From: Felis catus
Lineage: Eukaryota
DNA length: 64,000 nucleotides
Direction of reading: 5' to 3'
NCBI RefSeq assembly: GCF_018350175.1
Contig: NC_058368.1
Coordinates: 84,570,001-84,634,000, forward strand
Shown here: positions 3,040-59,370 of the stretch, one piece after another
Layout: each line of letters opens with the position of its first letter
How positions within the stretch are numbered: position 1 is the first letter of the stretch
Notes under the pieces: generated by a model
The model's input: the letters and a program-made list of their open reading frames with translations, nothing else
Told to the model about the DNA's origin: nothing
Databases searched by the model: none
Program-made: the position numbers and the translations under genes

Positions 3040-4849
3040 GAAATTTAAACAATAATCCACAGTTTTAAAATATAAACTAAAAGAAATAGAAAATAGCAAT
3101 GAAATCAAGATGTATTTCTTTAAGGGGGTAAACACAACTGAAAAAAATCAGCCAGACTTATAAAAAAGAGAACTCAAATAAATAAAATCAGAAATAAAGG
3201 AGATGAAATAATAACAGAAACAGAAATGCAAAGAATTATAAAATAATGTAGAAAAAAATTATGTGCCAACAAATGGAAAAACTTGAAGAAATAGGTAAGT
3301 TACTAGAAATGTATAATTGTTCCAAACAGAATCAGAAAGAAGTGCAATATTTTAACAGAGTGGTTATTAGTAATGAAATTGAATAAGTAATAATAAAAGA
3401 AAAACAACCAAACAGAGCAAATTTCAGGATCATATAGCTTGACAGGTGAATTCCATCAATATTAAAGCAGAATTAATAATATTCTCAAGGTATTCAAAAA
3501 AAATAGAAGAGAAAGGAAAACTTTCAAATGTAGTTCACAAATCCAATATTACACAGATAAAAAAACCAGATGCAGACACTAAAAACAAAACAATAACAAA
3601 CTGCAAATCAATATCTTTTATGTATATAGATGCAAACATTCCTTAACAAATTTTCCAAAACCATATTCAAATTTATATTTCAAAAATCATTAACAACTAT
3701 CAACTATGATTAATTCTGGTGAGGCATGGGTGATTTTAATTTGCTTTACAAATCAATCAATTTGATAAATCATATTATCAAGATGAAGGATAAAAACCAT
3801 ATGATCATCTTTACAGATGATCAAAAGCATTTGACAAAATATAATGTCTTATAATAACTCTTAGTTATTGTTACATAATAATATAATATATAATTATATA
3901 ATAATATAATAACTGTTAATTAGAATTAGAAAGAACTCACTGCAACCTGGAAAAGGCCATATGTGGGGAAAAACATGCTGACATAATAATGCTGAAAAAG
4001 AGACAAATTTTTCTCTAAGATCAGGAAGGAGACAAGAATATCCATTTTCACTTTATTTCACAGTATTGAAAGTGGTAGTCACAGCAATAAGATAAGGAAA
4101 AAAATTAAAAATCCAAATTGGTAAGAAAGAACTAAAAATTATTATTTGAAGATGAAATGGCACTATATATACAAAACCCTAATGAAGTCACCAAAAAATA
4201 GTATTACAACTGGGAATTAATTCAGGAATTTGTAGGACACAAAATTAATATAAGAAATCTTTTGCATTTCCATACACTCATAATGATGTTGCAGAAAGAG
4301 AAACCAACAAATAATCCACTCACAGTTGCACCAGAGGGCTAAAATGCCTAGGAAGGAATTTAGCAAAGACAATGAAAGACATACTCTCTAGACTAAGGAC
4401 AATGATGAAGGAAGTCAAGGAAAATACAAACAAATAGAAAGATACTCCATGGTCATGCACTGGAAGAATCAATATTGTTATAATCTCCATACTACATAAA
4501 GAAATCTATAGGTTTTCAAGATACCAAAAGCACTTTTCACAGAACAAGAACAAATATTTACATAATATATATATGAAAAAAAGACCATGAATAGCCAAAA
4601 CAATACTGAAGATGAAGAAAAATGATTACCATTATCCCAGATTTTAAGATATGCTACAGAGCTATAGAATACCAAAGTCTATGGTTGTGGAAAAGAAAAT
4701 AGACACATAGATCAATGGGACAGGAGAGAGATCCCAGAAATAAACCCACACCTATATTGTCAATTAAGGTATAATGAAGAAGGCAACACTATACAATGGA
4801 GACAAGACAATATTTTCAATACGTTGTGTTAAGAAACCTGAACAGGTAG
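3040..4849 (+). mobile_element. Old decayed L1 ORF2 segment, host of later insertions; continues at 12089-12160 and ~14695-15970
   Basis: Degenerate RT-region homology (e.g. ORF 3446-3646). The ORF2 sequence resumes colinearly after the 19-bp TSD at 12088. Confidence 0.85.
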
Positions 4850-16740: not shown

Positions 16741-17654
16741 GATAGCCTCCTGTCCAGGTGACTCCTTGGTCTAGTACAGAGGTGGGTTGGAGCAATCATG
16801 GTTCTGGGGGATTTGATCAGCTACTGAGCTGGATCAGACAGCTCATGGCCTGTGGGCTGTGTTCCAAGGAATCCTACTGTGTGCAGTGTTGTGATGAGTA
16901 CTTCTTCCAGTACAGTCAAAAAATTTCCTCTCTGCCAGGTGTCTGTGGGAATTGTCCACATTGTGTACATCTGGGTCAGCTTGATGTTCAGGACATTCAT
17001 TTGCCCTGTCCTGAGCTGGGTTGGAGGACTCCAGGGTATCAGGGTGTGGAGGGATCCCTCAGGTCATGGTCTTGGGTTCCTGTGTTGAGCCTGGTTATAA
17101 CCACAGGGTTTTGGGAGGGGCTTTCTCCAGATGACTGAGAATCCACTGTACTATGATTCCCTATACCCCACTTCCACCTCCTAATGGAAAAAACATACCT
17201 GAGTGGTCTGGCCAGCCTCACAGTGGGAAGCAAGTCCAGAAGTCACTGGGTGCGGGTACATGGACTCTCAGGACCACAGAGGGGCAGAGAGGTAGCCCCA
17301 ACCAGAAAGCTGGAGTATAGAGTGTCAGCCAGAGGCCCCAGGGCAAGAGTAGTGGGCAGCAGGTTTGTCATTAGCAGGGTAAAGGAACAGGGCAGAGAAC
17401 GGGAGGAATAGCAGGAGGAGCTGTGGCTGAAGTGCTATTTCTCTCCTCAGTGACACCTGGTCCTTGATTGGCTTTTATAAGAGCCCTGGTCATCACAGTG
17501 CCTCCTTGTGATGTAACCACCATGCCTGGAAAATCACCAGGGCTCTCTCAGGCTGGCCTTGTTCAGGTGGCCAATCATGAGGCAGCTCAGCTGGACAATC
17601 ACCGATGGCTTTCTCATTGGCCCTCCTGACATCATCACCTGGAAACCATGTTTT
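16741..17654 (-). other. Truncated inverted copy of the unknown promoter-plus-tandem-array element at 49305-52250
   Basis: Colinear reverse homology to ~49305-50300. Shared peptide KKFPLCQVS.GIVHIV.I.VSLMFR in ORFs 16852-17088(+) and 49918-50226(-). TATAAAA at 17479-17473 and CAG|GTATGT at 17198. Confidence 0.92.
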
Positions 17655-17879
17655 TAAAAAAAAATTTTTTTTTCAACGTTTTTTATTTATTTTTGGGACA
17701 GAGAGAGACAGAGCATGAACGGGGGAGGGGCAGAGAGAGAGGGAGACACAGAATCGGAAACAGGCTCCAGGCTCTGAGCCATCAGCCCAGAGCCCGACGT
17801 GGGGCTCGAACTCACAGACCGCGAGATCGTGACCTGGCTGAAGTCGGACGCTTAACCGACTGTGCCACCCAGGCGCCCC
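17655..17879 (-). mobile_element. Young felid CanSINE
   Basis: Near-identical to 12170-12385. TSD CTGGAAACCATGTTTT at 17639-17654 and 17880-17895. Confidence 0.97.
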
Positions 17880-18179: not shown

Positions 18180-19860
18180 CTAGAGAAGATAAAGCTGAAT
18201 CAGAAGTTATTAACTAATTGCCAAAATGTCATTTAACACTCATAAGAAGGGGATAACAAAATCCAGATGTTCAACATGTTCACAGTCTCATGTCCAGCCT
18301 CCAATAAAAAATTAGTCAATATCCAAAGAAGCAGGATCCAAAGTTCCAAATTACAGGTGACAATGTGAAAAGAGACATTATAAATATGGTCAGGAATTAA
18401 AGGAAAACTTATGTGATGGGAGGAGAAAGGGAAATCATAAAGAAGAATCAAATCAAATTTCTAGACTGAAACTAGGATATGTGAAATGAAAAACTATACC
18501 AAATGTTCTTTAAGAACAATGGATGAGGGGCACCAGGGTGGCTCAGAAGGTTAAGCGTCTGACTTTTGCTCAGGTCATGATCTCATGGTTTGTGGATTTG
18601 AACCCAAGGTCATGCTCTGTAATGACAGCTCAGAGCCTGGAGCATGCTTCAGATTCTGTATTACCCTCTCTCTATGACCCTCCCCCACTTGTGCTCTGTC
18701 TCTTTCTCAAAAATAAATAAACATAAAAAAACTATGATGGTATAATGCAGACAAAAATAATTTGAACTATTTGCAATAGGAACTATGCAAACCAAAGCCT
18801 AGAGAGAAAAGGAGATGGGAAATAAATGTAAAGAGCATCAGTGACTCATGGGACAACACCTGAAATGGTGGGACACAACAATAATTGTCTTAAATTTCCA
18901 AACAGGATAAAAACCATAAACCCACCCATGCAAGAGGTTCTGTGAGCCCCAAGCAGAAAAACACAAACACCAAATCAGACAGTAGTCTATAACAATGAAA
19001 CTGTGGAAATGAATGAGAAAGGGAAAATCTGAAAACAGTCAGAAAACACACATGGTACACATGGGGAAAAAGGATAAATTGGCTGGCAACTCTTTATTAG
19101 AAGAAAATGCAAACCAATAATATTGAATGGCATCTTTAAATTCTGAAAGAAGAAAAATGACAATGCCAAGTTCAAATTCTACATCTAGCAAAATATGCTT
19201 AAATAAATGAAGAAAAATAAATCCATTTGAGGCATATCAACACTGAGACTGCCTGTGAAAAAACTCACACTACAATACAAATTGGAGTTCTTCAGGGAAA
19301 TAGACAATGGTACCATAGGGGCACTGGTATCAAGGAAAGAATGAAGAAGGTAAAAATAGTAACTGGAGGGGTGCCTGAGTGGCTCAGTCGGTTAAGCAAC
19401 TGACTTCGGCTCAGGTCATGATCTCACAGTTCATGGGTTTGAGTCCCGCATCAGGCTCTGTGCTGACAGCTCGGAGCCTGGAGCCTGCTTCGGATTCTGT
19501 GTCTCCCTCTCTCAGCCCCTCCCACACTTCTGCTCTGTCTCTCTCTCTCTCAAAAATAAGTAAAATGTAAAAAAAATTAAATAAAAAAAGTAAGTTGAAA
19601 TATATCAGACTTTCATGATCTCATTTAAAATTTTCTTCTACAAGATACGAAACGTTTAAGGAAATATAAAAGCAATATACTGTTGTGTTTATAGCAAATG
19701 TCAAGTAAAACAGGATAATAATGGCACACTGCTCAAAAAGGGGGATTGGAAGTTTATTATTGTGTTGTGTTGTGTGTTGTACATAGAGTGAAAAAACATA
19801 TATATGTGAAGAAATATTATTTGATGGCAGATGGTGACAGATTAGAGACTCAAGTTTTAA
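18180..19860 (+). mobile_element. Old L1 ORF1-region remnant carrying two CanSINEs (18527-18730 +, 19368-19590 +)
   Basis: Decayed ORF1 wording. SINE heads GGGGCACCAGGGTGGCTCAG and GGGGTGCCTGAGTGGCTCAG. Confidence 0.7.
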
Positions 19861-26713: not shown

Positions 26714-27330
26714 ATGGTGCTGAGTCTTGGCCAAAGACAGAGTGGGTGTTTACCCACCTGCACGGGAAGCCTACAGGTAACAACTCTCCCCTCTCTTTCC
26801 CCCGTGTATGTCAAGATGCCTTCTTGAGTTTTTTTCTGCTCTGGGCAGGTGTCTTTGACAACCAAGTCCACATTTGTTCTCAGAGTGCCCTGGGTTTTCT
26901 TCTGCCAGAGCACTGATCCCACAACACAGTAACTGCCTACCAGCTCTCTGTTCCTTTCACTGCACTGTCAGGAGTTCTTGAAGGCAGGGATGATTTTCTC
27001 TTTATTGTTAGCACCAAAGACAGGGCCTGACCACAACTGCCTCCTTCCCTGATTTGCAAATACTCATCAAGCACTTTCTATCTCCTACCACATTATTAGC
27101 AATATAGATACATGCGGGGCATCCTACAGGTGGTCTCTGACTTCATAGAGCCTGGTTTACTGGTGCATGCTACAAAATGCACCGGGGACAGATCCACAGA
27201 GGAAGTGATCCATGAGTTGGGGGAGGGTACTTGGAAGCCCAAAGAGAAAAAGTCTCATTGACCATAGGAAGAGGGATTGTGTCTGGAGCAGACGGGAACA
27301 CACAGAGCCAGGGATACCATCGTTAAGATT
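26714..27330 (+). pseudogene. IGHV: VH3-like relic split by an L2 fragment (paralog of 32020-32500)
   Basis: Leader-like ATG...TGGGTGTTT...CCTACAG|GTAAC (donor 26777), CTCAGAGTGCCCTGGGTT (~LRLSCV), AACTGCCTACCAGCT (~NWVRQA), L2 at ~26955-27265, then GTGTCTGGAGCAGACGGGA (~GLEWIG). Confidence 0.55.
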
Positions 27331-29706: not shown

Positions 29707-30050
29707 ATGAACGTTCCATAAAAAAATAACTCATCTGAAGCAGGTAACTGCAGGCTCAGGTGACAGGATCTCTGCAGGGAGGTGGGAGGGAGGGACTCCA
29801 GGGGGTAGAACCATGGGATATGTGCAGCACCTCTCCTGTGGGAAGAGTCCCACCCCAGGACTGTGGGGGCCCTGGGGGTCTCCTGCTTCAACCTCTGCCT
29901 TCACTTCCAACATCACTGCCCACCTGAGGACCTCAGGCTGGGGAGGATTCTGATTGGCTGGTCCTCTATGACATCATGTGTGTATAGGACATCCTGCCTG
30001 GGATGCTGCCATGATGGTATTTATGATGCAATCCTCCTTTATTCTTCCTA
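29707..30050 (+). pseudogene. IGHV: VH3-like relic
   Basis: GGGGGCCCTGGGGGTCTCCTGCTTCAACCTCTGCCTTCACTTCCAAC (29865-29911) versus VH3 GGGGGGTCCCTGAGACTCTCCTGTGCAGCCTCTGGATTCACCTTCAGC. CAGGCTGGGGAGGATTCTGATTGGCTGG resembles QAPGKGLEWV. Upstream CAG|GTAACT...CTGCAG forms a 34-nt mini-intron. Confidence 0.68.
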
Positions 30051-30054
30051 CTGC

Positions 30055-31260
30055 ACATGAGCACACACTAGCACACACACATTAGTGCACACTAGTTTTC
30101 AAATGTGTGTATGTCAGTACACAGTACACACACTAGACCATGCTAGCATGTCTAGCACACACTGCTACTCTCTAGCACACAATAGAACACAAACTAGTAC
30201 TCATACCAGCAGCAGCACAAGTACACAGCTAGTACACACACTAGTACATACTAGTGTACAGCTGGTGTATATCAGTACACACAGTAGTATGTCCAGTACA
30301 TACTACTACACACTAATACATAATAGCACACAAGGTATATTCAATCTAACACAAATAGTAGCACACACCTAGTAAACATGGTAGCACACAGATTTGCAAA
30401 CCTATTACACATTTGCGCACACTACTAAATATACTGGCACTAGTGCACACTAGTGAACACACTGGCATTTACTAGTACACACACTAGTGTCTATTAACAT
30501 ACATTAGCACATCTCATACAGACTAAGACACACTAGGACACATGTTAGTTCCCAAATATTAGTTCACACGAGTATACCTATCAGCACACACACTAGCATA
30601 TGTAAGTGCACATGCTAGTATACACATGAGCACACACTAGCACTGGTTGTATACTCACTGGAACACCTAGTACACATACTAGCACATGCATTGCCAGACA
30701 CAATTACACATGCTAGTATGCACATGAGCACACACTAGCATTGGTTGTACATTCATTGGTACACCTAGTACACCTATTAGCACATACAATAGCAGACACA
30801 AGTATATGTGCTAGTATACACATGAGTGAACACTAGCAATAGTTGTACATTCAGTGGTACATCTAGTACACATATTAGCACATACACTGGCAGATACTAG
30901 TACACATGCTATTATACACGTGAGCACACACTAGCAATAGTTGTACACTCACTGGTACACTTAGTACACCTATTAGCACACACAATAGCAGACACAAGTA
31001 CACATGCTAGTATACACATGAGCACACACTAGCTCTAGCTGTACACTCACTGCCACACCTAGTACACATACCAGCACACACTCTAGTACATATGTTAGTA
31101 TACATACTAGTGCATGTTGGCACACCCAGGGCATATTAGCACATAGTAGCAGACACAGGTACACATGCTGGTATATACACTAGTACATGTGAACACAATT
31201 ACCAGCACATACCTAAAATACCTGGTATACAGCAAGTGATGTGTCTGACAAAAACTTGTG
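30055..31260. repeat. CA/CTAG-rich minisatellite with a 98-bp higher-order unit
   Basis: A CATGCTAGTA-like anchor recurs at 30611, 30709, 30807, 30905 and 31003. The flanks are looser ACACACTAG-type repeats. Confidence 0.92.
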
Positions 31261-32019: not shown

Positions 32020-32500
32020 CATTTTAACATGCAGTATGCTAAAGACAGGTAACACCTGTCTCCCCTCCCTTTCCCCCAGCTATGTGCAAATGCCCTTCTG
32101 AATTTCCTGTTCTCTGGGAGGTATTTTTGACAGCCAGGTCCATGTGTATTCTCAGAGTGTCCTGGGTTTTCTTCTACCAGAGCACTAATCCCACAGCACA
32201 GCAACTGCTTGCCAGCTATCTGTTTTTTTCCATTGCACTGTCAGGAGCTCCTTGAAACAGGGATGATTTCCTTATTGTTAGCACCAAATACAGGGCCTGA
32301 CACACAACTGCTTCCTTCCATGTTTGGCAAACACTCATCAAGCCAGAGGAGGCAATGGGTCTGGAGCAGAGAGGATACACAGAGACCCAGGGAAACCACA
32401 GTCTACATCTTCATATACATCGTCTGAGCTCAAGGGGATAAAGGCAGTACAGACAATTGACCAAGTGTGGATTACCTTGAGGGGACATTAACCCACTCAG
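32020..32500 (+). pseudogene. IGHV: VH3-like relic split in FR2 by an L2 3' fragment
   Basis: CAG|GTAAC..CCCCAG 31-nt intron (32049-32079). TCTGGGAGG..ACAGCCAGGT..CTCAGAGTGTCCTGGGTT (SG..QPG..LRVSCV), AACTGCTTGCCAGCT (~NWVRQA), L2 at ~32225-32345, GGGTCTGGAGCAGAGAGGATACAC (~GLEWIGYI), GAGCTCAAGGGG (~FKG), ACAGACAATTGACCAAG (~RDNSK). Confidence 0.62.
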
Positions 32501-35049: not shown

Positions 35050-35387
35050 GTAGGGGAGTGAGTCCTGAGCTGGTGTGCTGACTTGTGTGAGATAGGACAC
35101 ATCTCCTGTACTCATTCTTCCCAGATGACTGTTTGTGAATGACCTTTGTCCTCATTCTCAAAAACACAATGGAGTCACAGAGGAAGAACAGCCTGGTGGT
35201 CAGCTCACCTGGAAACCTCAAGGCCTCTGCATCTCTCTGCATTAACCTGGGGTAGGTCTGGGGTCTTCTGGCATTCACCTTGGCATAATCTATGGTATTT
35301 GGACTTCTTACCATGAACTACAGCATGCAGGGGCCTCATGTTCTCCCTAAAAGTATACACCCAGGACCATTCCCAGTCTTGGTCCAT
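35050..35387 (-). pseudogene. IGHV: VH clan I-like relic; possible FR3 remnant at ~33995-34085 beyond the L1
   Basis: Leader-like EWSWVYTF...VHG|GTAAGA (donor 35311; compare the VH leader MEWSWVFLF). V part RLMQRDAEALRFPGE...IHKQSSGK resembles QLVQSGAEVKKPGE...WVKQS.GK. Confidence 0.5.
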
Positions 35388-35462
35388 CCTTTTCTAGGCT
35401 GAAAACCCCCAGGTACTTGTTTCCTGACAGGGTAATTCTTTCTCTCTTTAGACAAAGCCAGC

Positions 35463-35984
35463 ATCTCCACAGTGACACAGAACGGCTGGAGTAAGTTGAC
35501 TTTTCAGATCGCCCCAATTAGACAGAATGAGAGGAATATCCTTGTACCTCCCAATGTATGGATCCATCATTTCAACCCAAGTCTGTCTTTACCAGAACAC
35601 CTCCCCTTACATTCCATCAATATTGCCCTACTTATGGGGATGTACATTCATTCTAGGCTAAGTAAAACATATCTTTGGGAAACTTTTTTTTTTTTTTGCC
35701 AAAATTAACCCTGACCCTTTCCTTCAAGGAGTGGGTTTCTTGAAATGGAAATTATGTCCATATCTCCTTCTCAAAGTCAGACACTTCAATTCCACACAGG
35801 TAAACTGAAGATGAGTTCAGCTTGTTCATGCTGTGCTCCTCAGTGTGGCAGCAATGGGAGGACTGGACTGCAGGGTGGAAGACTGCAGGGGATGATCCAA
35901 GCACAGCTGCAGTGATCCCCCAGTTAGACTCACCAGAAACAGTGTTGTGAAGGTTTCCCAGGACAGTGGATCTGAAGAGAGCAT
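35463..35984 (-). pseudogene. IGHV: VH relic with leader, 66-nt intron and V exon
   Basis: ACCATG...CTTCACAACACTGTTTCTG|GTGAGT (35933), acceptor CCCTGCAG (35868). LQFTCV..LTLRRRYGHN...P*RKG resembles LRLTCV..FTFSSYGMN...PGKG. Also LKSQLT, and TGTCACTGTGGAGA (~YYCAR). Confidence 0.62.
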
Positions 35985-35989
35985 GGTTG

Positions 35990-36288
35990 CACCTAAACTT
36001 GTAGAAGCCTTTGTAGATACCTGCTTTATGCTGTGAAAATGAAGAACACACTGTGTGGTGATGCTATACAAATCCATATCGATGGTCACCTCAACTACAC
36101 TTCACCAAATGGCCCCATTCTCTAACCTACTCATGCACCAAACCAAAGTGTCCTCATAGATGACCTTCCAGCACACACCCATCTCACTAGCTTTTCTCCT
36201 CTCTGACTGAGCAACTGTTTTCCCTGTGGGGGCCTGAGTGAAAGTGGAGCAAATCCCCTGTATCCCACCTTGGACCAGCTTGGACCTC
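35990..36288 (-). pseudogene. IGHV: VH clan II (IGHV2-like) relic, nearly one continuous frame
   Basis: CACAG|GAGGTCCAAGCTGGTCCAA start. In-frame ORFs 36102-36317 and 35826-36089 read KLVQGG..TQAPTGKTVA..SEMGVCW..TLVW..VTIDMD..QCVLHFHSIKQVST, versus TQTLTLTCTVS..SGMGVSW..ALEW..LTISKD..QVVLTMTNMDPVDT. Confidence 0.72.
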
Positions 36289-37200: not shown

Positions 37201-37454
37201 TCCCAAGACTACAAAGAGCAAATACCCAAAGTAGGGTGGAGAACAAACAAGATAGTTCATAGATAACATGGTCTAAGGAATTAATGTACACAGGCAGGAT
37301 CTAACCCCTATATACTCATTAACTAGACACTGGTCACCTATTTTCAGCAAGGCCATAAAAGCAGTGTAATGTGTTCCCTATAATCTCCTTAACCAGGATA
37401 CAGCTATTTGATTTCCCACACATGACCACACATTTTGGGCACATTTCAGACTCT

Positions 37455-37933
37455 GGGTGCCTCACACAAACATCAAGTATGCACTGCCCATAGGGTCCTT
37501 TCAGTCCATGATCAGAGCAACAGGTGAGGGTGAGGTGGCCACTGGTGTCCTCGTGTTCCTTTTTGGGTTCTGTGCCAACCTCCAGCTTTTGCATCCTGGG
37601 CCTCTGAAACCTGCTGCATGGACTACTCTGAATAACTGGCTCACTAATGCTACTGATTAAGGGGCAGATGTATCTAACTATGTAGGTTGCCCCCAGGATA
37701 CCCTAAGCCTCTGACTGGCTGGCCTTGGAGGATGCAAGAGTAACTTCCTCCCTGAGCCCTGCAGGATCAGATGGTGACCATACAGGATATAGCCTCTGGC
37801 TTGCCTTGCAGATGGACTTGCAGGCTGTTGGGTAATCAGTTCTTCCATCCAGGACAGCTGAGAGGACCACGCAGACACAGGGTGAGGCTGGAGAAGTCTC
37901 TGTATCTAGACAGGACAGCCCAGGATGTGGCAT
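37455..37933 (-). pseudogene. V-like relic (VH4-like leader; domain class uncertain)
   Basis: ATGCCACATCCTGGG resembles ATGAAACATCTGTGG. Acceptor CTCTCAG|CTGTCCTG. ISCMVT...SYSCILQGQPVRGLGY has VH-like Cys-to-Trp-position spacing. Ends TGTGTGAGGCAC. Confidence 0.45.
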
Positions 37934-39442: not shown

Positions 39443-39966
39443 CGCTCTGTCCTGAGGACACACAGATTCATCTTCTGCTAAGATATGACAGCAGGGAGAG
39501 AGTGAGGCTGTGAGTGGGCCTGGCCTCACCAGGGAGGAGCAGGTGAGGGGAGGTAATTAGCTCCAGGGGACCTCCAGGTCTGCAGGTGCTAGAGTACTCA
39601 ATTGACACCTCACTTCCTCCTGCATGGGGGTCTCCATGTCAGCGTCTATCTGCACCTGGAAGAACAGGGGCAGGTGATTGGAGTCCACAGGGCACCATGC
39701 AGGTAAGGGCAGGAGCCTGGTGTGACTGGGCCTCACTCATTGCTGTGGACTAGGTCCTTGCCAGCATGTCTCAGCCCTGGGCTCCCATCAGCAGCACCTG
39801 AAAGCAATCCCTCACCTCCAGAGTGGGTCATTCTATGTGATGGGATGGAGCACGGGCACTTGCATTTCCAGCCAGCTGATTCCCGGGAACTCCACGCTGA
39901 CCCAGGGCCAGCACAGCCCTCAGCAGGGGCCATAACCTCACCCACCTCCAGATCCACTGTGTCCAC
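39443..39966 (-). pseudogene. IGHV: VH relic with leader, 104-nt intron and V exon
   Basis: GTGGAC..TGGATCTGGAGG (~MDWIWR), donor GT 39901, acceptor TTTCAG 39798. CTGCCCTTACCTGCATGGTGCCCTGTGGACTCCAATCACC (~LSLTCTVSGDSIT), AEDESV (~AEDTAV), heptamer-like CAGAGCG at 39449-39443. Confidence 0.68.
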
Positions 39967-42452: not shown

Positions 42453-42899
42453 ATAAATCAGTCTTTTCATTAGATTTGTTGAACAGCTATAATTTGAATA
42501 TAAATAACTGCTTTATAAAATTTCAATGACAATTTTTTGTTTAAGTGTTCTGAACTATAATGATAAGACTGCTTATGACAGCTTTAATTATTTTTACTCA
42601 CATGCAATATTTTTTTCACATCCTGCTGGGTAAGCTTCACCATACCCATAAAAAAAATTGGTTGCTATTTGTAAATGGCAAGTTTCTCATTTAAATTTGA
42701 ATCTGGAAATAATGGGAATTCCAAAATAGCCGCTGTTAGAATCTAAAAGTTGAAGTTTCTAAAAGCAAGTGTGAAAACATGCTGTTCTAGACTGGAAAAA
42801 GGCAGTGTTTACAGGGAAACATAGTGCTAAGAAGATGTATTTTTTTTTCCTTAGGTATTGAAATGTAAAATCTTGATGTACGTATGACTGCTGATGTGA

Positions 42900-45161
42900 G
42901 GGTAAGGAACATGATGGCAGAGTAGGAGTACCCTAGGCTTCTCTTGTCCCATGAACACAACTAGATAGCTATCAAATCATCCTAAACCCACCAGAAATTG
43001 ACATGGAGACTGACAGAACAAAGTCAAGAACTAAGGGAGACAAGACGCCACATCGAGTAAGGTAGCAAGAGTGGAGACATGGTTTAGGGAAGAAATGGAT
43101 CATGCATTTTGTGGAGGGGACAGAGCCAAGGTCATGGAGACAGATGAGAGGGAAAGAGAGAGAAACACACAGGCAAAAGCACAAGGAGAATGCTTCCCCA
43201 AGGCCACTGGCTTGAAAAATGAGAGGGGTTGAATTTCATGAGTTCCTGCAACCTGCAGGGAAGAAAGGCTGGCATTTTAAAGTTTAGCAAACTTGGCTGG
43301 AATTCTAATAGAGCCCCAAGTCACATCTCTACTCCTGGAGATGTCAGGCAAACAACCCAGGGGCAGATAGCATCAAAACAAAAACAGTGATCAGAAAAAC
43401 AATTGGGACACATAGGGGGAGATTATTTGCTTTTCTTGGAGCATTTCTCATAGAGGAAACATTAATGGAAGTGCCTTTCTAGGAATAAAGGAGCTTGTTG
43501 GCACCATTTTTTATCCCTGTTCCTCAGCATAAACACAGAGCCACTCACAGGAAGCAACCTGGCACTGACACTGGCTACCTTACTTGCTTACCTCAAGCTC
43601 CAGAGCCCCGTGCTTTCATTAGACTGCCCTTTTCAGTCAAATTTGCCTCACTGCAAGCATGACAGGACCCTCCCTCAGAAGACTAGGACAAAGCCCTGCT
43701 CATACCACATCTCTAACAAGAAAATTCTGCAAGGCCTTAGTTCTTGTGGAGGTGATGTCAGGTCTCATTTCACAAGCAGACCAGGGAACACCTAGTTAAA
43801 ATTCATAGCATTCAGAAGAGGGACGAAACTTCACACTGCAAGGCAGAAGATCCTCTGTATACAACTGGACTAAAGCATAGAGCAATGACAACACAACAGC
43901 AACAACAACACTACACATCACTCACCAGAGCTGCTCCCTAAATTGCCAGGGCTGGACATGATATGACCTCTTCTTCATAAGGCCATACTCTCAAAAGTAG
44001 GAAATGTAACTGGCTTTTCTCAAACAGAGAAGACAAAGGATTAGACAAAATGCCAAAACAGGAATTCATCCAAAATAGAATAACAAGATAAACTCATAGC
44101 CAGACATTTAAGCAGAACACATATAACATGCTTGATAGAAAATTTAAAGCAACATTCATAAATATACATACTGGACTTGAGAAAAGAATAGAAGTCATCA
44201 GTGAGACTCTTACCATAAAGATACATGAGTCAAAAAAACATCAGTTGGCTTGATGCAATGAGCAACAGACTGGAAGTATCAGAGAAATTAATTAGTGACA
44301 TAGAAGACAAAAAAAAAGAGGAAAATATTGAAGGTGAACAAAAGAGAGAAAGAAGAAATATGAGTCATGAGAGTAGACTTAGGGAATTCAGTGACTCCAT
44401 CAAACATAATGACAGTTGTATTATAGGAATCCCAGAAGAAGAGAGAGAAAAGGGGACAGAAAATATATTTGAACAAATGATAGGTGAAAACTTCCCTAAT
44501 CTGAGAAGGAAACAGACATCCAAATTCACAGAGAACTCCCATCAAATTCAACAAAAGTAAGCCAACACCAAGACACATTGTAATTAAATTGGCAAAGTAT
44601 AATGATAAAAAATCCTAAAAGCAGCAAGATAAAAGAGGTCTCTAACTTACAAGGGAAGACCCATAAGGCTAGCAACAGATGTAACCACAGAAACTTGGCA
44701 AAAGTAAGGGTACTGGCATGATATATTCAATGTGCTGAATAGGAAAAATTTTCAGTCAAGAATACTCTATCCCCAAAGGCTATCATTCAGAATAGAAGGA
44801 GACATAGAGAGTTTTCCAGACAACAAAAATTAAAGAATTTGTGACCTTTAAATAAGCCCTTAAAGAAATAGTAAAGAGGACCCTTTGAGTGGAAAAGCAA
44901 GATCAAAAGTGACAAAGACAAGAAAGGATCAGAGAAAATCTCTGGGAACAATAATATAACAAGTAATAATATGCTAATTAATACATATCAATAATTACTC
45001 TGAATATAAATGGACTAATGCTCCAATAAAAAGACATGGCAGGGTGCCTGGTTGGCTCAGTCAGTTGGGCCAACTCTTGATTTTGGCTCGGGTATGATCT
45101 CATGGTAATAAGATCAAACCCTGCTTTGGACTCTGGGCTAAGCATGGAGCCTGCTTGGGAT

Positions 45162-49100: not shown

Positions 49101-49304
49101 TTGTATAAAAAAGAATCTTAGTAGTAGGACGCCTTAAAAATTAACCTAGTTTATGAGCCAGCAAACTGCAGCCCAGAGCCCTATCCAGTCTAGTGCCTGT
49201 GTGTTGTTTTAGGTTTTGTTTATTGAGATGAAGTTCATGTAATAAAAATTTACTCATTGTTAAAAGAAACAAAAATAAATAAATAAATAAAAACCACAAA
49301 TAAA

Positions 49305-49500
49305 CATGGTGTCCAGACAATGATGTCAGGAGGGCCACTGTGAAAGCCATCTGTGATTGGCCAGCTGAGCTGCCCAGTGATTGGCCACCTGAACAAGGCC
49401 AATCTGAAAGAGCACTGATGATTGGCCACATACAATGTTGACATCACAAGAAAGCAATGTGATGAATCAGGTGTGTTTAAAAATCCAGACAACAGCTCAG
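49305..49500 (+). promoter_or_regulatory. Promoter-like head: CRE-like sites, clustered CCAAT boxes, TATA-like box
   Basis: TGATGTCA 49321-49328 and TGACATCA 49439-49446. ATTGG at 49356, 49380, 49421 and CCAAT at 49399. TTTAAAAA 49476-49483, which is TATAAAA in the paralog at 17479. Confidence 0.55.
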
Positions 49501-49849
49501 GCCACACTGAAGAAAGAGATAGCAATTCCACCACAGCTCTTCCTGACATTCCTTACAATCTCTGCCCTGTTCCATGCCCCTGCTGATGGTAAGTCCCCTT
49601 CCCATTCCTCCTTCCCAGGGCCACTTGCTGACATTCTGTGCCCCAGCTTCATGTTTGCACGTAACTTTGTGGCCCTGTGTGTTCCTGAGAATCTGAATAC
49701 CTGCATCTGGCTACTCCTGGACCCGCTTTCTATTGTGAGGTTGGCTGTACCACTCAGGTATGTGATCCCATTTGGCAGGTGGGAGTGGGGAACTTGGAAT
49801 CACAGTACAGTGGATTCTAAGCCATCTGGAGAGAGCTCCTCCAAAAAAC

Positions 49850-52040
49850 ACTGTGGTCACAGTGATGTTCAGCACAGGAAAGCTGAGGCCACGTCCTGAG
49901 GGAACGCTGCACAACTTTCACCCCTGAGGTTCTCCAACCCTGGTCAGCACAGGCAATATAAGTGCTCTGAACATCAGGCTGACCGAGATGTTCACAATGT
50001 GGACAATGCCCGCAGATACCTGGCAGAGAGGGAATTTTTTGAAACAGTTAACGACTGGGAGAAGGACTGAGACAGCACTGGACACAGTGGGAGTGCTTGG
50101 AAAACATGCCCTCAGGCCATGAGCTATCTGATACAGCTCAGTAGTTGACAAACAAACCCCAAGGCACTGGGCTGACCAGGCACCCACAGACCACAAGCCT
50201 TCCAACCCACTATTGCATAGTACCATTGAGTCCTAAGAACATCAGGCATGCCAGGAGCCTCCCTACGATGAATACTGCATCCTACCTCAATATTGGACAA
50301 AAGAGTCATATGGACACCAAGATGACCAGAGGCCCTCCAACCAAGAGCCTGTAATCCAGGAGAGAGGGCAATTGATTGCCCAAGACTCTGGCCTTGACAG
50401 GAGCTTTCAGAGCACAAGCATTCTAGTTGAGCAGAGCACAGGGAAATCTAGTCTCCAGAATAGAGAGCTTGTCAAGAGACATCAGACCATGATTCCCCCA
50501 ACCCAGCTCTGCACTAGGCCAAGAGGTCACCTGGACAATAGGCTCACCAAGTACCCTTTGACCTGGAGCCCTCCAACAGAGCAGGGCATAGGACAGTCAA
50601 GTCTCCAGAACACCAAGCTTGCCAGGAGCCTTCAGGCCATGATCCATTTAATCCAGCTCTGCATTAGGCCAAGTAGTGATCTAGAAAGTGGGCTTACCAC
50701 TTGCCCTTGTACCTGGAGGGCTCTAAACCAGCTCAGCATTAGGGTAAGGAGTGTCCTGGACATTTGGTTCACCGTGTGTTTTTGGATCTGGATCCCTATG
50801 ACAGAGCAGAGCAGAGCAGAGGGCAATCAAATCTCCAGAACATTGGGCTTGCCAAGAACCATAAGACCATGATTCCTCCCACCAAGCTCAGCACTAGGCC
50901 AAGGAGTCACCTGGATCATGAGTTCACCATGTGCCCTTTGACCTGGAGACCTCCAGCAAAGAAGATTGAAAGGCAATCAAGTCTTCAGAGCCTCAGGTTT
51001 GCCCAGAGCCTTCAGACAACAAGCCATCCAAACCAGCTCTGTACCAGACCACGTGGGCTCAGCACTTGCCCTTGGACCTGGAGGACTCCAAAACAAGCTC
51101 AGCACTAGTCCAGGGAGTCACCTGGACAGTTGGCGCACCATGTGTCCTTGGATCTTGAGCCCTACAGTAGATAAGAACACAGGGCAATAAAGTCTCCAGA
51201 ACACTGGTCTTGCCAAAAGCCTTCAGGTCATGAGCCCTCCAATACAGCTCTACACTTGGCCTAGGAGTCACCTGGAGAGTGGGCTCAACATGTGCCCTTG
51301 GTCCTGGAGACCACCTACCCAGCAGAGCAAAGGCAATCAAGTCTCCAGATCACTATGCTTTCCAGGAGCATACATACCAGAAACCATCCAATCCAGCTCT
51401 GCCTTAGGTCAAGGAGTCATGTGGACAGCAGACTCATTATGTGCCCTTGAATCTGGAGCCTTCCAAGCCATCAAAGAATAGAGCAATCAAGTCTCCAGAG
51501 CACTGGGCTTGCCAGAACCCTTCAGACTATGAGTCTTCCAACCCAGCTCTTCACTAAGCCAAGATGTCACCTAGACAGTGGACTCACCACATGCCCTTGG
51601 ACCTGGAGGGCTCCAAACCAGATCAGCACTAGGCCAAGGAGTCATCTCAGCAACAGGCTCACTATGTACACTTTTACCTGGAGCCTTCTAATCAAGCAGA
51701 GTCAAGGGCAATTGATCACTAGGCTTCCTAGTTGGCCTCAGGATATGAGACCTCTAAACCAGCTCAGCACTGTACCCACATGTCCACTGGCCCCATGGCT
51801 AAATGAAAGCCTTCAAACCATGAGCTTTCTATCTCAGCTTAGCACTGGGCAAAAACATCACTAGGACAGTGAAGTGACCCAGACTCCTCTGATTGGGAGC
51901 CATCCAACCCAGCAGAGAAGTGGGCAATCAAATTCCCAGAACATCAGGCCTACTGGAAACCTTGTGACCTCAAGCCCTCTATTCCATCTTGACACCGTGC
52001 CACTGAGTCCCCTGGACACTGTGCCTACCAAGAGACCCTT
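49850..52040 (+). repeat. Diverged tandem array with a 75-bp base period and 150-bp dimer
   Basis: CAGCTC-like anchor at 50504, 50654, 50729, 50884, 51034, 51095, 51245, 51394, 51544, 51619, 51760, 51835 and 51985. Confidence 0.93.
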
Positions 52041-52259
52041 GACCAAAATCCCTGCATCCCATCAAAACACAGAAAAGTTGAGTCCCTTCTCATCTGGGAC
52101 TGACTTCAGCCTGAGGTCCTTGACGTCTGTCACCTGTACAACCTTCCTGCTTGGGGGAGTTCTCCTCCTCATAAGAAAATAATATCAGGCCCTAACAATG
52201 AGACTTTGTATTAAATTGAAGACTTTGTATTTGAAGACTTTGTATTAAATTTCAAGACA

Positions 52260-52566
52260 GGACATGAGGAGAGGGGCTTGGAGGAAGTTGCAGAGGAGAC
52301 CCAGGCCCTGAGCACAGAGGAGTTACCATCCGAGATCTTCCAGATAAGGGGGAGGTTCTCCTAAGTGGAGGGAAAGGTGGAGGCCTTAGAAGAACAGGCC
52401 CAGCAGTTGGGTGAGATGGAGGATCAGCTGCATGAGGTGGAGAGATTCTTGTGCTCACTAAGGACTTCCTGGAAGCTTTGGCTTTCAAGGCAATTTACAC
52501 GGGGCAAAGTCCACCACTAACTCACATGAGATGGAATAAAAGGGGGGCTGGAAAAAGTGTATTCAT
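52260..52566 (-). pseudogene. IGHV: VH clan II relic with an IGHV2-like leader
   Basis: ATGAATACACTTTTTCCAGCCCCCCTTTTATTCCATCTCAT|GTGAGT (52566-52520) versus IGHV2 ATGGACACACTTTGCTCC...CCATCCCTTCAT|GTGAGT. NLSTSC-S*SSISPNCWAC resembles [20 protein letters not shown]. Confidence 0.68.
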
Positions 52567-52649
52567 TTCCAGGAGTGGGAGCATGGCATGAGTTTACAAT
52601 TTACATGAGTGTTAAATAAATAAAATGATCATTTCAGAATTATTAAGAG

Positions 52650-52830
52650 AAACAATCCCTGGTTATACTGATGTGCAGCCTGGCTTGCAGTCACTACTGC
52701 ATCTTATAACTCCTCACATTGTCCTGATGTGAGGGCAGAGGTCTCCATGGATCTGAGAAAGTGTCAGTGAACTATAGGGAGCTGACACTGAGCACAATAT
52801 ACCTGCCCTCATCAACACTGTCCCACATAT
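52650..52830 (-). pseudogene. Possible short VH relic
   Basis: CAG|GTATAT...CTGAC..TTTCTCAG forms a ~50-nt intron. TGCAAGCCAGGCTGCACATC resembles CKASGYTF. Confidence 0.35.
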
Positions 52831-52895
52831 TGACTTCTAGAACCCAATGACAGCTGCTGAAGTCAGATCTTTTCTGATCGAAGGGAAAAGAGAAA

Positions 52896-53559
52896 CAGTA
52901 TGTCCTCACACAGGTATTTCTCATAAATCATTTCTGGCCTGAGGGCTCCCAACCAGATTGTTGATAAACTTGAGTTTGGTCCCCAGGGTGAAGTCTCCAC
53001 ACTCGGCCACCACAGCAGGTGTTTCTCCACTTCAGGTTCTTGTCTGATGCAGTCCTTTGAAGAGCAAATGTGACAAACCAGGGAACCAGACAGGAGGGAG
53101 GCCAGAGGCATTGAACCACTCCCTGTCTCTGCTTGAGGAGGTGCAGTAAGCAGAGAAGAATGTGAAGGGCCATGATGGTGGGCTCTTTTCTAACTTCAGA
53201 ACAGAAGGAAGCACTGCAGGAATTGGGGGACATATGTGGGATTCAGATTTTGTGCTTTTGATGCAGGGATGGAAGGGCAGAATGTGAGAGAGGTGGGAAG
53301 AGATGTGCTTTAGAGATTGTAGGGTGTGCATGGGAATAAAGTGGCCACTCTCAAGATGCAGAGCTGAGATTCCATGATGAATTGGCACTGAGGCTTAAAA
53401 GGGAGTTGGAGGTTAAGTTTCCAGGCTCAGCCCCTGCTGGGAAATAATCCCTCTTAGCTCCAGGGATGTGGGGTGGAAGCTCAGGTGAGGTGCAGATTCA
53501 AGTGACATGGGGCCCACCTGTGGCTCCAACTGAGGTGCAGGGGAAGAGCCTAGAGCTAT
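52896..53559 (-). pseudogene. IGHV: VH3-like pseudogene retaining promoter, leader and V exon
   Basis: Leader CC-ATA(ATG lost)...GCCACAG|GT (53517). LHLLKQRQGVVQ...SCLVPWFVTF resembles VQLLESGGGVVQ...SCAASGFTF. Also DCIRQEP (~WIRQAP), SV..FTL, TGTGTGAGGA and heptamer-like CATACTG (52902-52896). Confidence 0.78.
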
Positions 53560-53665
53560 GGAACCTGAGCTGAGCTCAAGGAAGTCTGTTCCTAGCACCT
53601 GGGCATAAACTGATGGGGGCCATGCAGAAGCTAGCTCTGGACTCTAGCCAGCACTAGACTCTTTC

Positions 53666-53716
53666 TTTATAGATACTACATGAACAGTGTATGTGACTCA
53701 TTTGAATATTCATGAG
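53666..53716 (-). promoter_or_regulatory. IGHV-type heptamer-octamer promoter with TATA box
   Basis: CTCATGAATATTCAAAT (53716-53700) matches 16 of 17 bases of canonical CTCATGA-AT-ATGCAAAT. TATAAA at 53671-53666. About 140 nt upstream of the leader. Confidence 0.8.
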
Positions 53717-54419
53717 CCTTAACAAGACACAATGTAAGTAATTCCATAATCTTTAATGTCTCTTATCCAAATATTCCTCATGTAAAGCTGGGAAGATGTT
53801 CTGATGGCCTTGGGTTGTCTTGTGATGTTTCTAGAGTCTTATAATATCCTTGTCCTGCGTCTGTTGCCTCTACAATCTCCCTGGGCCAGGATGTACAGAA
53901 GTAGTGTTCTAAATCCCAAATATGCTCAAGGCCCCACTTCTCTTCCCTGACATCTTTAATAGTTGTATTTCCCATACTTAAGACCCAACCTAATTCACCA
54001 CCACCCCTGCCCCAAGACTGTGTTTTATCCTGTCCTCCTCCAACATGGATCCTTCCTTCAGTCCTCACACTCATCCTGCCCTTAGTCTGACATTGTTCTC
54101 GCCATTCTTGTTGCCTGGGACTTCTTTTCTCACCATTGCCACTGCCAGACTTCTATACATCCTTTAGGGTCCCTAAATCTGCCCTCGACTCTACTGGGCA
54201 GAGTTTATTGCTTTAAAACTATCTGCAGTAGTGCCTATCTCATAGAACATTTCCCCGTTTGTTTAGGTTCTGTACTTTGTTTGCCCAAACAAGAAATATG
54301 ATCAGTAATTACAGCAGTGATAGGTATATTCTTCCTACAATAGAACCCATGACCACGGTGCCCATAAATTGCCCCCAAAGTCTCATTCTACTATATTTTT
54401 ATTCTTCATTTTTCCATCT

Positions 54420-57400
54420 CAACTGACATGGAAAGTTAGAAACATAGAAAATTACCAATTAGAATTAAATTCCTAGATTGAAGCAAATTAATTAAGCAGA
54501 AGGAGGGATAGAATACATGAATACCTATAGAAAGAAAGGAGTTTAAATATTTCCCCACAAAGAAAAGCCCAACCCCCTATGGGCTCACTGGTAGTTACCA
54601 AACATTTAATAAAAAATAATTACCAGTCTTTCAGAAACACGTCTGAAAGTGGGGAAGAATTGGGAAGTTTACCAATTCATTTATCAATTTATTTTATGAG
54701 ACGAGTTATTATCCAGATAACAGAAACAGCAACACCACCACAATTAACCTACACACCATATATCTCATGTGTATAGGCACACACATTTTCCAAACAATTT
54801 TACAAATTGAATGTACCATTGTATAAAAATACACATTATGAACAAGCAGGATTATCTTTCAAATGAAATTTGGTTTAATGTCCAAATATCAATTAATGTA
54901 ATGCATCATATTGGTAGATTATAAAACTAAAAATAATTATTTCAATAAATATAAAAAGAATTTGTCATAACAAAGGGCTAGCGATTTTATTTTTATTTTT
55001 CCATGTATTTGTTTATTTATGTTTGTTTATTTGTTTTATTTATTTATTTAATTTATTTTAAAATGTTTAGTTAAATTCAAGGTAGGTAATATCCAATGTA
55101 TTATTGGTTTCAGGAGTAGAACACAGTGATTCATCTCTTACATATAACAACCAGTGCTCACCCCAACAAGTGACCTCCTTAATGCGCATCACCATTTAGC
55201 CTATCCACCCTCCCTTCTATCCTCCAGCAACTCTCAGTTTATTCACTCTATTTGAGTCTTTACTTGTTTGCCCCCTCTCCATTTTAATTTTTTTCGTTTC
55301 CCCTATATTAATAAATTTTGTTTCTTAAATTCCACTTATGAGAGAAATCACATATTTGTCTCTGACTTATTTCACTTAATATAATACACTCTAGTTACAT
55401 CCACATTGTTGCAAATGGCAAGATTTCACTTTTTGATCACCACGTATTATTCCATTGTATTTGTATGCCACACGTTTATCCATTCATCAGTCAATGAATA
55501 TGTGGGCTCTTTCAACAATTTACCTATTGTTTTTTTTTAATATAAGTTACTATCAAATTGGATTCCTTCTCTCCCTCTCTCTCTGCCCCTCCCCTGCCCA
55601 TACTGTCTCTGTCTGTCTCAAAATAAATGACTAAACTTAAAAAGAAATGATTGGGTCTTCAGTTGTTCTATGTAAGGGATGAATCACTAAATTCTATACC
55701 TGAAACTAATATTACACTGTATGTTAATAACTAAAATTTAAATAAAAGTTTGGAGAGAGTCTGGATGGCACAGTCAGTTAAATATCCAAATCTTGATTTT
55801 GGCTTAGGTCTCACTGTTCCTGTGTTCAAGACCCATGTTGGGCTCTATGACAGCACAGAGCCTGCTTGAGATTCTCTGTCTACCCCTACCCTGACTGTTG
55901 GAAAGGAAGTAAACTCTCACTCTTTGCAGATGCCCATGATAGTACATAGTAAAAACCCTAAAGCCTTTAGTGTTTTTTTTTCCCCTATAGGGTAAAAACC
56001 CTAAAGACTCCACCAAAAAACGAAAACATAAAGAAAACAATTAAAAGTAATAAGTGCAGGTATGTTACACCACAGTTTGGGATTAAGAGAAGAATGCCCA
56101 ATTTTACCACTACTAGTCAGCATTATACTGAATAGAGTATCATCTAACAAGAAGAAACAAATGGCTTCCCTGGTGGAAGCCTATGTAGATGACACTATCC
56201 TGTGCATACAATTTTCTAGGGAAATGAGTAAAAAACCCTAAAACTAATTACTTGTTTGTACAAGTTGGCAATACAGAGAAATAACATACAAAATTAGAAT
56301 AATTATTATACAATAACAATGAGCAATCTCAAAATTATATTAAGAAACAATTTTACTTAAAATAAAATCAATTATATTTAGAAATAAATTTACTAAAAAA
56401 TTTAAGCCTTAGCCACTAGTATGTAAAACACATGATGAAAGAATTCATACATCTTAATAAAATGAGACATTCAGTATTCAAAAATATTAATACTTAATCT
56501 TATAAAGGTCACAGTATTCATAAGTGAATAAAATAATTCAATGCAATTCTTTTTTATAGTCCCAACTACCATTTTTTAAATAGAATTTGGCCAAAAGACC
56601 TTTATTACATACTGATATGTAACAGAAATCGAACAACCAAATCAATGGTGGAATATAAAAATAATTGGATGGCTTATCTTATAATTTTTGTTGTTGAAAG
56701 CAGGACATACAGTATGGAGTAGTGGATTTATGGTAAATACTTATTAAGTGTATTTGTGAACTCAGATTCCCCTATTGTATAAGTCTTGTGTGGAGAGTTG
56801 TACTAGTCTAGATGAAAGTTATGCTAGGATTAATATTTGTTATGGCAATTATCACCCTGTGAGCACTAGATCATTCAAATTCTTTTCAGGTAACCTTGCC
56901 TTTATGTCTTGAACTTCTGTGATTTCTATTTGTTCTTCTTACAAGATATAGTCTGCTGAGTGCAATGGACTCACTATATTCTATTGTAATTGTACTCCAT
57001 GCTTGCTCATGTAGTGCTAATGTTTTTTTTTTTTTTTTCTTTTTTAATGTTCTCACTAAATATCAATCTTGGTCAAAACTGTTTACTAGGGTGTTGGGAC
57101 ATTCACTCCAGACAGAATGCTTGTTCAAGGACAGGCCCTTCCTGCCCTTCCCCCAGAGGTAGAGGTGCTCTATTTATCTGCCTCTCTCTTACCAAGCTGA
57201 AAAGGACTTGCAAGAGTGCCTATGTAAATTAAGGCTTTGGTTTCCTTATGAGAGATGAATCTTTCCAGAGATTCAGGTGGTGCAAACCCCATGTTTGTAG
57301 ATTTTAAGGTTGCATGTTGTTACACATGCCCCCTCCAGGTGCTCATTAAAAACTTTCAATTCAATTTTAGTAGTTTATATGACCTTCTGGGTGCAAATTT

Positions 57401-59370
57401 TGGGTCCTGTATAACATGCAGTCTCTTATTTCCTCAAATGCAATGTTAGTTGTCTGCCCTGAGACCTCAGTTATCTTATGTATTCAGGAAAAGTTATTAA
57501 TTTGCAGTTTTTAAAGATTTATTCTTGTTGAAAGTGTGGGAACAACTCTTTATGCCAGTTCTGACCATTAACAAATTAAAACCAATAATTATTTTAAATA
57601 TCTTCTTCAATTTCATAGAGACAGAATTCATTTTAGAACTATATCGGTGCTGCTCTAGCTGTGCTAATATCTCTTTAGACATTTTCCATATTTGTATGAG
57701 TTTATCTCTCCATTTAAATTCAGGTTTAATTCCTTGTTAACCTAATAGCCTGCTGCTCTACTTTATTATAGTTGATTTACTTCACTAAGTTATTTTTAAC
57801 CTTTTTCAAATATTTAAACCATTAGTGTGTGTGGTTACTGGAGATCAGCTTATAAGTTAACATGTCTCCTCAACCAATGATTTATGGTTTCAGCCCTGAA
57901 CCACGTCATTCCTGAAGTCAGATCATCCTTTAGAATGCATTTACTTATTTTAATTTTCAGTGGCTATTCACTGATAATATTCTCTATGTCACTAGAATTT
58001 TAGGCCTTATGGATCTGAACACACAGTGAACTATATGGATAGCCATATTACTTGGCCTCTTGAGGGTGCAATTCCTTAGTGAAAAAAAAAAATATATATA
58101 TATATATATATTACCATTCTGTGATTTGCAACCCAGATTAATCACCTTGAAATATGAGCCAGAGTTGAGTGATTAAGAATGTACACTTACTCATGTAAAT
58201 AAAGGAATTTTGATAAATTTTCAATTTTATAGAAAAAACATAGAAATACATTTTCTGATACAAATATCAGAGGGAAAATCAAAATAACATTATAATAAAA
58301 AATAACAATTAACTGATAATCATGTATATATTATATATTTGTATATATATGTATGTATATATGTATAGTATGATCCACCTTCCTATGCAAAATCATTTGC
58401 TTTTAAACTCTCATCAGTTATGTTTTTATTTGCCCTATACACTCATGGGAAACTCTGTCTTTGTTTTATATATTTAGTATATATTATGTGGCCTTTTTTT
58501 TATGGTACAATGCACATAAAACACACCACTGTGACCATTTAAAAATGTACAGTTCAATGCATTTCAATATAGTAAGTTGTACAACCATCAGCTTTTTTGA
58601 CACATAAAACATGACTCATAACCAATAAACAGTCATTCCCTATTCCTCCCTCCATATTGTCCCTGGCATCACTAATCTGCCTTCTCTCCCTATTCATTTG
58701 CCTTTTCTGGACATTTGATATAAATTGAATTGCACAATATATGGCAATTATTATCTGGCTTATTTCACTTAACATTTTTGAAGTTAATCCATGTTGTGGC
58801 ATCTCTCAGTACTTCATTAATCTTTGTGGTGGAGCAATTTTCCTTTGTATTAATCTATTACATATGAAGACTTAGGTTGTTTCCTTTTGATTGTTGTGAA
58901 AAAAGTTCTGTAAATATCTGTGCAAGTTTTGAGCAAATATTCTTTCACTTCTTTGTGTATATACCAAGTAGTGATATACTGGGTTACACAGTCTTAACTT
59001 ATTAGGAAACCACCAGGGTGGTTTGCATACCTTTTGCACAATTTTAATTTTTTTTAATGTTTATTTATTTTTGAGAGACAGAGCATGGGTAGGGGAGGGG
59101 CATAGAGAGAGGGAGACACAGAATCTGAAGCAGGCTCCAGGCTCTGAGCTGTCAGCACAGAGCCTGTTGTGGGGCTTGAACCCACAAGATGTGAGATCAT
59201 GACCCGAGGTGAAGTTGGATGTTTAACCGGCTGAGCCACCCAGGTGCCTCTTTGCACAATTTTACATCCACACCAGCAAGTATAGGGTTATGAATTTCTC
59301 CACAACAATGACAATTTTATCTTCCTTTTCAATTATAGACATTTTAGAGAGTATGAAGTGGCAGGTAAGT
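54420..59370. mobile_element. Patchwork of old L1 fragments on both strands and CanSINE pieces, including a CanSINE at 59045-59248 (-)
   Basis: Decayed ORF2 (+) at 54420-56690, L1 3' ends (-) at ~55000-55530 and ~58490-59370. SINE TSD TTTGCACAATTTTA. Confidence 0.75.

Follow-up and report, generated by a model that had tools for sequence, protein, structure and literature searches.

An apparently undescribed repeat-protein gene family, seen through a dead, probably transcribed copy in the cat genome

What kind of element joins a promoter-like head to a tandem array of 75- and 150-bp units, with one reading frame recurring through the array? The question is raised by a locus in a 64-kb stretch of Felis catus DNA, the whole of which was analyzed and is called the window below; the surrounding sequence is rich in L1 and SINE. 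Two candidate answers had been offered: an undescribed mobile element, or the decayed remnant of a multicopy gene specific to the lineage, for either a repeat protein or an lncRNA. In our reading, which we hold with good confidence, the locus is a transcribed, unprocessed pseudogene whose single-exon parent gene encoded a type I membrane protein of ~1,000 aa. The gene family is real and apparently undescribed, and is seen here through a dead, probably transcribed copy.

The extent of the unit can be read from assembled contigs. Two contig runs of RNA type (a status guessed by the index) were examined, from two studies, and both cover the unit but not its flanks. In run X4, a single contig of 3,151 nt spans 49501-52626 and carries a library adapter at its 5' end; in run X7, three contigs together span 49512-52637. 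Depth is zero in both runs in the flanking bins 49105-49452 and 52759-54300, and neither set of contigs has a joint or gap within the unit. The contigs start 25-36 nt downstream of a TATA-like site and end just beyond a pair of overlapping AATAAA poly(A) signals found by motif scan at 52615..52624 (+; starts at 52615 and 52619), a pattern that a DNA library would not be expected to give by design. The contigs thus define a probable unspliced transcription unit of ~3.13 kb, from 49501 to about 52637 (+), larger than the 49305..52250 of the original prediction. Its strand is taken from the promoter and the poly(A) signal, as the contigs carry no strand, level or tissue.

Splicing and an earlier 3' end had both been envisaged for this locus. 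Donor-like sites do exist at 49589 and 49758, but their use is not supported by the contigs, which have no joint at either position. An end at the ATTAAA of a terminal triplication is rejected, because the contigs continue past it to 52626 and 52637. More broadly, 20 of the 24 runs listed hold at least half of the unit's words, and 14 of those 20, from six studies, are small and of RNA or guessed-RNA type, with 76-93% of the words present. In the raw RNA runs X21 and X24, each sampled to just 1-2%, 0 reads fell on the unit. The promoter and poly(A) signal of the window copy are apparently still in use despite the lesions described below. RNA without exon junctions escapes junction-dependent nonsense-mediated decay; because the RNA of this unit has none, it would evade that pathway.

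Directly before the contig starts lies the promoter (49302..49500, +), recognized by motif scan, CCAAT density, the position of those starts and homology with two relatives, an inverted paralog in the window (copy B) and a contig found by metagenome scan (L001). The CRE/CCAAT/TATA cluster seen originally is there in full: a CRE-like TGATGTCA at 49321 and a CRE-like TGACATCA at 49439, four CCAAT/ATTGG boxes at 49356, 49380, 49399 and 49421, and a TATA-like TTTAAAA at 49476. Four or more CCAAT boxes occur in only 9 of 6,385 overlapping 150-nt windows, and eight of the nine are this promoter site. The promoter is 74-76% identical to those of copy B and L001, which is no better than the conservation of the flank (75%).

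The array itself occupies 50070..52070 (+), where autocorrelation and unit alignment resolve ~27 monomers of 75 bp. They are of two types, A and B, often arranged as A-B dimers of 150 bp, and looser units begin near 49870, before the main array. Autocorrelation over 50380-52060 peaks equally at 75 and 150 (0.46 each; the next peak is 0.36), and the best match of a unit to a reference unit reaches 0.83, compared with a maximum of 0.49 in 50 shuffles. Both the 75-bp monomer and the 150-bp A/B dimer are thus borne out, and the ~50-aa repeat noted earlier does recur in one frame of the unit: the array codes for 25-aa units rich in S, T, P, R, W and C.

The stops in this frame are few. The window array has 3 in 564 codons (23 units), compared with 15.8±3.8 in neutral simulations, none of the 2,000 of which gave so few, and no depletion of stops is seen in the other five frames. 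The simulations used the observed substitution spectrum and started from an open majority unit, with the units in register with it. Although the majority unit is drawn from the same units, the simulation starts from it open, and so the test concerns stops gained. The depletion indicates that the array diverged while an ORF was kept open. Divergence at the three codon positions (0.19/0.27/0.22 in the window, 0.17/0.18/0.19 for L001) shows no clear synonymous excess, and pairwise dN/dS is 0.58-0.85 for larger blocks and 0.63-1.34 for small ones. The window values suggest that stops were purged while residues could change freely; amino-acid constraint on the repeat is weak or absent. A dN/dS near 1 with no intact or transcribed copy was to have counted against a gene at this locus. 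The ratios are indeed about 0.6-1.3; on the other hand, the locus has transcript-like contigs, and one copy is nearly intact.

That near-intact copy is L001 (contig RCNI01008042.1). The metagenome scan reduced 86 stretches to three loci, of which L001 alone matches the window as DNA; the other two, L002 (bacterial-like, GC 61%) and L003, were dropped for lack of a DNA match. L001 has the same promoter followed by a 902-codon frame at 1380-4085 (product P0017), running from an ATG to the end of the contig, and is 70-75% identical to the window copy in DNA outside the array. Its frame has stops only at codons 4 and 466, compared with at least 18 in shuffles. The original prediction had proposed to look for a copy with a long ORF; the frame of L001 has 902 codons, with two stops inside, and none of the copies found is fully intact. 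In the L001 array, 1 stop is seen, compared with 9.9±2.9 simulated (P=0.001; 18 of 19 units), and the changes in unit length are whole codons. A rough tree on 75 columns places 18 of the 19 L001 units together, beside three window B units (support 99/96), so the window and L001 arrays would have expanded independently. L001 could be another carnivoran's copy or a distant paralog.

Copy B lies within the window at 16744..17653 (-) and is recognized by homology. It is an inverted, 3'-truncated paralog that retains the promoter, the leader (with an ATA start), the N-terminal region and one unit; its leader frame is broken early, and its 3' part was not found within the 64-kb window. It is 76% identical to the window copy over 855 nt, and it has ~450 nt of upstream flank in common with L001, 75% identical.

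More distant relatives come from protein collections. An HMMER profile built from seven window units was run against 1.84 billion representatives, including at least some animal NCBI proteins. The 14 matches consist of the window locus (98.8% identical), 11 relatives and two chance hits, a low-complexity zebra mussel protein (P0004) and a protein that is LRR-like by eye (P0013), both dropped. All 11 relatives are fragments of 82-190 aa that carry the repeat frame of the window units: a partial, unnamed product of Gulo gulo (wolverine, a caniform) and ten others that have no protein name. A crude word scan shows at least 6 of the 11 running off into shifted frames.

P0017 shows how the parts were arranged in a single frame: a signal-peptide-like leader, the 25-aa CPWTW repeats, a transmembrane-like helix and the start of a tail. 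Its hydropathy has two equal top peaks, at residues 3-21 and 851-869 (19-residue mean 1.93; the next is 1.04), the second followed by basic RRK. Past the helix, L001 reads on into FEDFVL, which is the frame of the window tail at 52257-52520, and it ends before the zipper described below. Residues ~20-70 of L001 lie in other frames than those of the window copy (indels of -31/-32, -1 and -1).

The same order can be followed in the window. The leader IAIPPQLFLTFLTISALFHAPA (49519..49584, +), assigned by hydropathy and alignment to L001, corresponds to the first P0017 peak. Its 11-residue hydropathy is 2.26, and it is hydrophobic in all three copies (2.26, 2.53 and 2.43). Its first codon is ATA in both window copies, as against ATG in L001, which requires either two parallel changes or an older loss. 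The leader frame is open from 49519 to 49842, reaching into a stretch aligned to P0017 (49585..50069, +) that holds the N-terminal non-repeat region and loose units of the former ORF together with the two donor-like sites. Beyond the array, a transmembrane-like segment at about 52110..52182 (+), found by hydropathy and alignment, has a 19-residue hydropathy of 1.88 and aligns in frame with P0017 peak 851-869; it ends in LLGGVLLLIRK at 52179, directly before a premature TAA stop at 52180. The GACTTTGTATT triplication with its ATTAAA does exist, at 52201..52251 (+), yet rather than closing the unit it is a local duplication of +14 nt relative to L001, lying between helix and tail; it shifts the frame and breaks the link between the two. 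The presumed cytoplasmic tail of the former protein follows at 52257..52520 (+), continuing the frame in which the L001 ORF ends. It contains an acidic patch and a zipper, with L, I or V at seven successive heptads (52323-52451; seven heptads arose in 2 of 20,000 shuffles), and its likely original stop is at 52518. Four of these features are additions to the original prediction, namely the leader, the transmembrane-like segment (about 52110-52173), the tail and copy B.

The window copy is badly damaged. Read in nine segments that were picked after seeing the alignments, it lacks the original ATG, switches frame 8 times and meets 7 premature stops, at 49925, 50146, 51188, 51448, 51862, 52180 and 52362. 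These counts offer a rough clock. In simulation, ~7 stops per 900 codons accumulate at 0.05 substitutions per site and ~17 at 0.125, the latter being half the distance between the window copy and L001. The 7 stops of the window copy, fewer than ~17, suggest that it remained coding for much of the time since the split before it died, with the stops and frame switches perhaps gained over about 0.05 substitutions per site since death. The two stops of L001 fit about 0.015 substitutions per site; L001 may have died much later or be damaged only in its record.

Searches of other collections returned no named full-length homolog in Pfam, PDB or the protein searches. At the curated cut-off, Pfam has nothing for 7 unit frames, 9 + 101 other window frames, P0017 or four relatives; a Longin match (E 3.5e-4) falls below the cut-off. 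There are 0 matches in PDB, and the ESM Atlas has no match at 0.9 or above. Rfam has no match in the unit at the gathering score, and its sole match in the whole window is a tRNA-like SINE at 19373-19457. Word-indexed searches gave 1 of 1,667 candidates for the repeat profile, which is the same locus, 0 of 167 for the tail, and 0 of 6,946 for P0017 (lengths 496-1,579 only); these searches are insensitive, the repeat-profile one having missed relatives of matching length that HMMER found. There were 0 matches in phages and 0 of 14 candidate stretches in viral contigs. No paper on this gene was found in the literature searched, in which subscription journals are thinly covered. An AlphaFold prediction for six L001 units gave no fold (pLDDT 48, pTM 0.12, from a 10-row alignment), which would fit a disordered repeat.

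Sharp-ended, unspliced contigs from two studies, and a promoter and poly(A) signal that apparently remain in use in spite of seven stops and eight frame switches, can also be read as signs that the RNA is now the functional product: an lncRNA with a protein-binding 75/150-nt array, kept after the ORF died. We consider this unlikely. Leftover transcription requires no function, the promoter is only as well conserved as its flank, Rfam recognizes nothing in the unit, and the frame-specific stop depletion indicates a protein past. Such an RNA would be compatible with the pseudogene reading, of which it could be a later stage.

A short product from the 5' end is a less probable alternative. It would be either a 126-aa secreted peptide translated from the AUA at 49519 (open to 49899) or a 40-aa ORF that begins with the first AUG (49574). 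The contig start is 18 nt away from the ATA, which has G at positions -3 and +4 and is also present in copy B, and the frame is open for 126 codons. However, AUA initiation is weak, copy B has an early break in this frame, the final ~18 codons stem from a +1 shift specific to the window copy, and the peptide has no homolog or Pfam match.

The mobile element of the original prediction would be a HAL1/L1-like 5' end with monomers, or an LTR element, in which one frame is merely open. It would explain the two copies within 33 kb, the several broken relatives elsewhere, and the abrupt start of window-copy homology at 49302, after an A-rich tract and with an upstream flank unlike that of copy B; and HAL1/L1 5' ends and LTR elements do have promoter-like heads, tandem monomers and a coiled-coil-like frame. 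Nevertheless, the expected structures are missing. No LTR-like repeat of the head lies downstream (scores of 24 and 31 against 52100-59300; shuffled mean 26), nor is there a direct copy of the head in the window. No poly(A) tail follows 52637, and there is no target-site duplication, the 8-mers shared by the edges being A-rich only. In addition, the TATA promoter sits upstream of the contig start, outside the transcript, copy B and L001 have an old upstream flank in common, no transposon Pfam domain is found, and a signal-peptide-like segment combined with a transmembrane-like helix is unlike the ORF1p layout. A mobile origin is therefore very improbable. As for the notion that the locus was never a gene, only a tandem repeat whose ancestral unit was open by chance beside a cryptic promoter, dN/dS near 1 among units and the lack of a named homolog would suit it, but we give it next to no credence, since simulations from an open unit predict 16 and 10 stops where 3 and 1 are seen, and since leader, helix and zipper share the repeat frame outside the array.

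What stands, then, is the decayed lineage-specific multicopy repeat-protein gene, supported by stop depletion in one frame only, near-intact L001, copy B and the promoter directly before the contigs. Its protein can be sketched, with the membrane topology taken from hydropathy alone. The predicted signal peptide would direct a basic stalk of ~820 residues to the lumen or cell surface. The tandem repeats are 23-24% T+S and 33-35% P+T+S. Between the leader and helix of P0017, T+S make up 23% of residues and P+T+S 35%, with 25 Cys and 95 K+R compared with 42 D+E; each 25-aa unit of the stalk carries about one Cys and two Trp. A stalk of this composition may be unfolded, probably O-glycosylated and disulfide-linked, and may act as a spacer or coat, in which case selection would keep frame, length and composition rather than individual residues. 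The single helix, followed by basic residues, would be the membrane anchor, and the cytoplasmic leucine zipper could oligomerize or tether the protein. Unequal exchange presumably drives the turnover of repeat units, with a different outcome in each copy. A role in germ cells is plausible, although it is a guess that falls somewhat short of an even chance. We are more tentative still about a wider proposal, that an intact, translated family persists in living carnivorans, and perhaps more widely, with a role at the germ-cell or embryo surface, and that its repeated and recent losses, in which transcription continued, reflect fast birth-and-death under sexual or host-pathogen conflict.

Whatever the protein did, the locus brings to light a mammalian gene family that is present in the searched protein collections just as unnamed fragments. 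It is also a clear example of a repeat whose frame stayed open with no constraint on its amino acids; by dN/dS alone, such a repeat would be classed as non-coding. Should an intact ortholog exist, the family represents a repeat-coated membrane protein of a new kind, and its tissue, topology and losses are directly testable; if none exists, a recently dying family has been documented, the remains of which would be annotated as lncRNA.

Known proteins with a comparable plan include PSGL-1/SELPLG, CD43/SPN, GP1BA and MUC22, type I membrane proteins with mucin-like repeat stalks; in SELPLG, SPN and GP1BA, the coding region lies in one exon. Like PSGL-1, CD43, GP1BA and MUC22, the protein predicted here would have a signal peptide, a long S/T/P-rich repeat ectodomain, one helix and a cytoplasmic tail. 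Unlike them, it has a basic 25-aa unit with periodic Trp and Cys, a seven-heptad zipper in the tail and no Pfam match, and all of the copies found are broken.

The passages on lineage-specific mucinized genes of mammals in PMC9417175 place most of them in the SCPP locus and describe their products as predicted to be secreted, without a transmembrane domain; the T+S content of MUC7 is given there as at least 20%. The present family resembles the genes described in those passages in its lineage-restricted exonic repeats, its T+S content (23-24% here) and near-neutral amino-acid change outside T and S, whereas two ferret MUC5ac-like sequences, in the parts shown, lack the CPWTW unit (PMC9417175). 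In the portion of PMC8627553 that describes it, FAM209 is likewise mammal-specific, with a signal peptide, one helix and a cytoplasmic C-terminus, but it is 170 aa long and has no repeat stalk, and neither the tail nor P0017 gives a FAM209 match in Pfam. The feline testis transcripts TETY1 and TETY2 differ, to go by their description in the relevant part of PMC1420679, in being Y-linked and in that no repeat array is mentioned there; like the unit described here, they are carnivore-restricted, multicopy and transcribed, with little coding capacity (PMC1420679).

Four protein relatives of copy A, the studied unit (P0005, P0020, P0021 and P0022), are nearly identical 82-aa variants, and the +5 frameshift that the window carries near 50810 is absent from all of them. 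Because they are so alike and share the same end residue, their sequences suggest recent copies, or close species with one stop in common. In L001 (contig RCNI01008042.1), positions 1438-1593 differ from the window's copy A by three deletions, of about -31, -1 and -1; these add up to -33 and bring the frame back into register, making the stretch a compensated frameshift spanning ~50 codons.

At window 29930-31200, a tandem array of 98-bp units comes after another CCAAT/TGACATCA-like head. The array is CACACACTAG-rich, all six frames contain stops in 30040-31200 (22-29 per frame), and the head is no more similar to the promoter of copy A than shuffles are. Elsewhere, ~300 nt are duplicated in direct orientation (26773-27072 and 32045-32343, identity 82%).

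On the minus strand, several AG/GT-bordered, exon-like pieces, one with an ATG, can be picked out by eye at 35190-36010 and 39620-39670; a Pfam search of frames across this region gave no match. Neither did Pfam match a Cys/His-rich open frame of 122 codons at 37337-37702 (minus strand), which adjoins a stretch that looks LTR-like by eye. A weak Pfam match to Longin at 42762-42932, also minus strand (E 3.5e-4, under the cut-off), is probably due to chance.

At the edge of copy B, the inverted, 3'-truncated paralog of copy A, a young SINE (17663-17879, flanked by a 16-nt target-site duplication) lies exactly where homology between the two copies starts. The equivalent site in copy A is an A-rich tract (49265-49302), as if this site had been struck twice.
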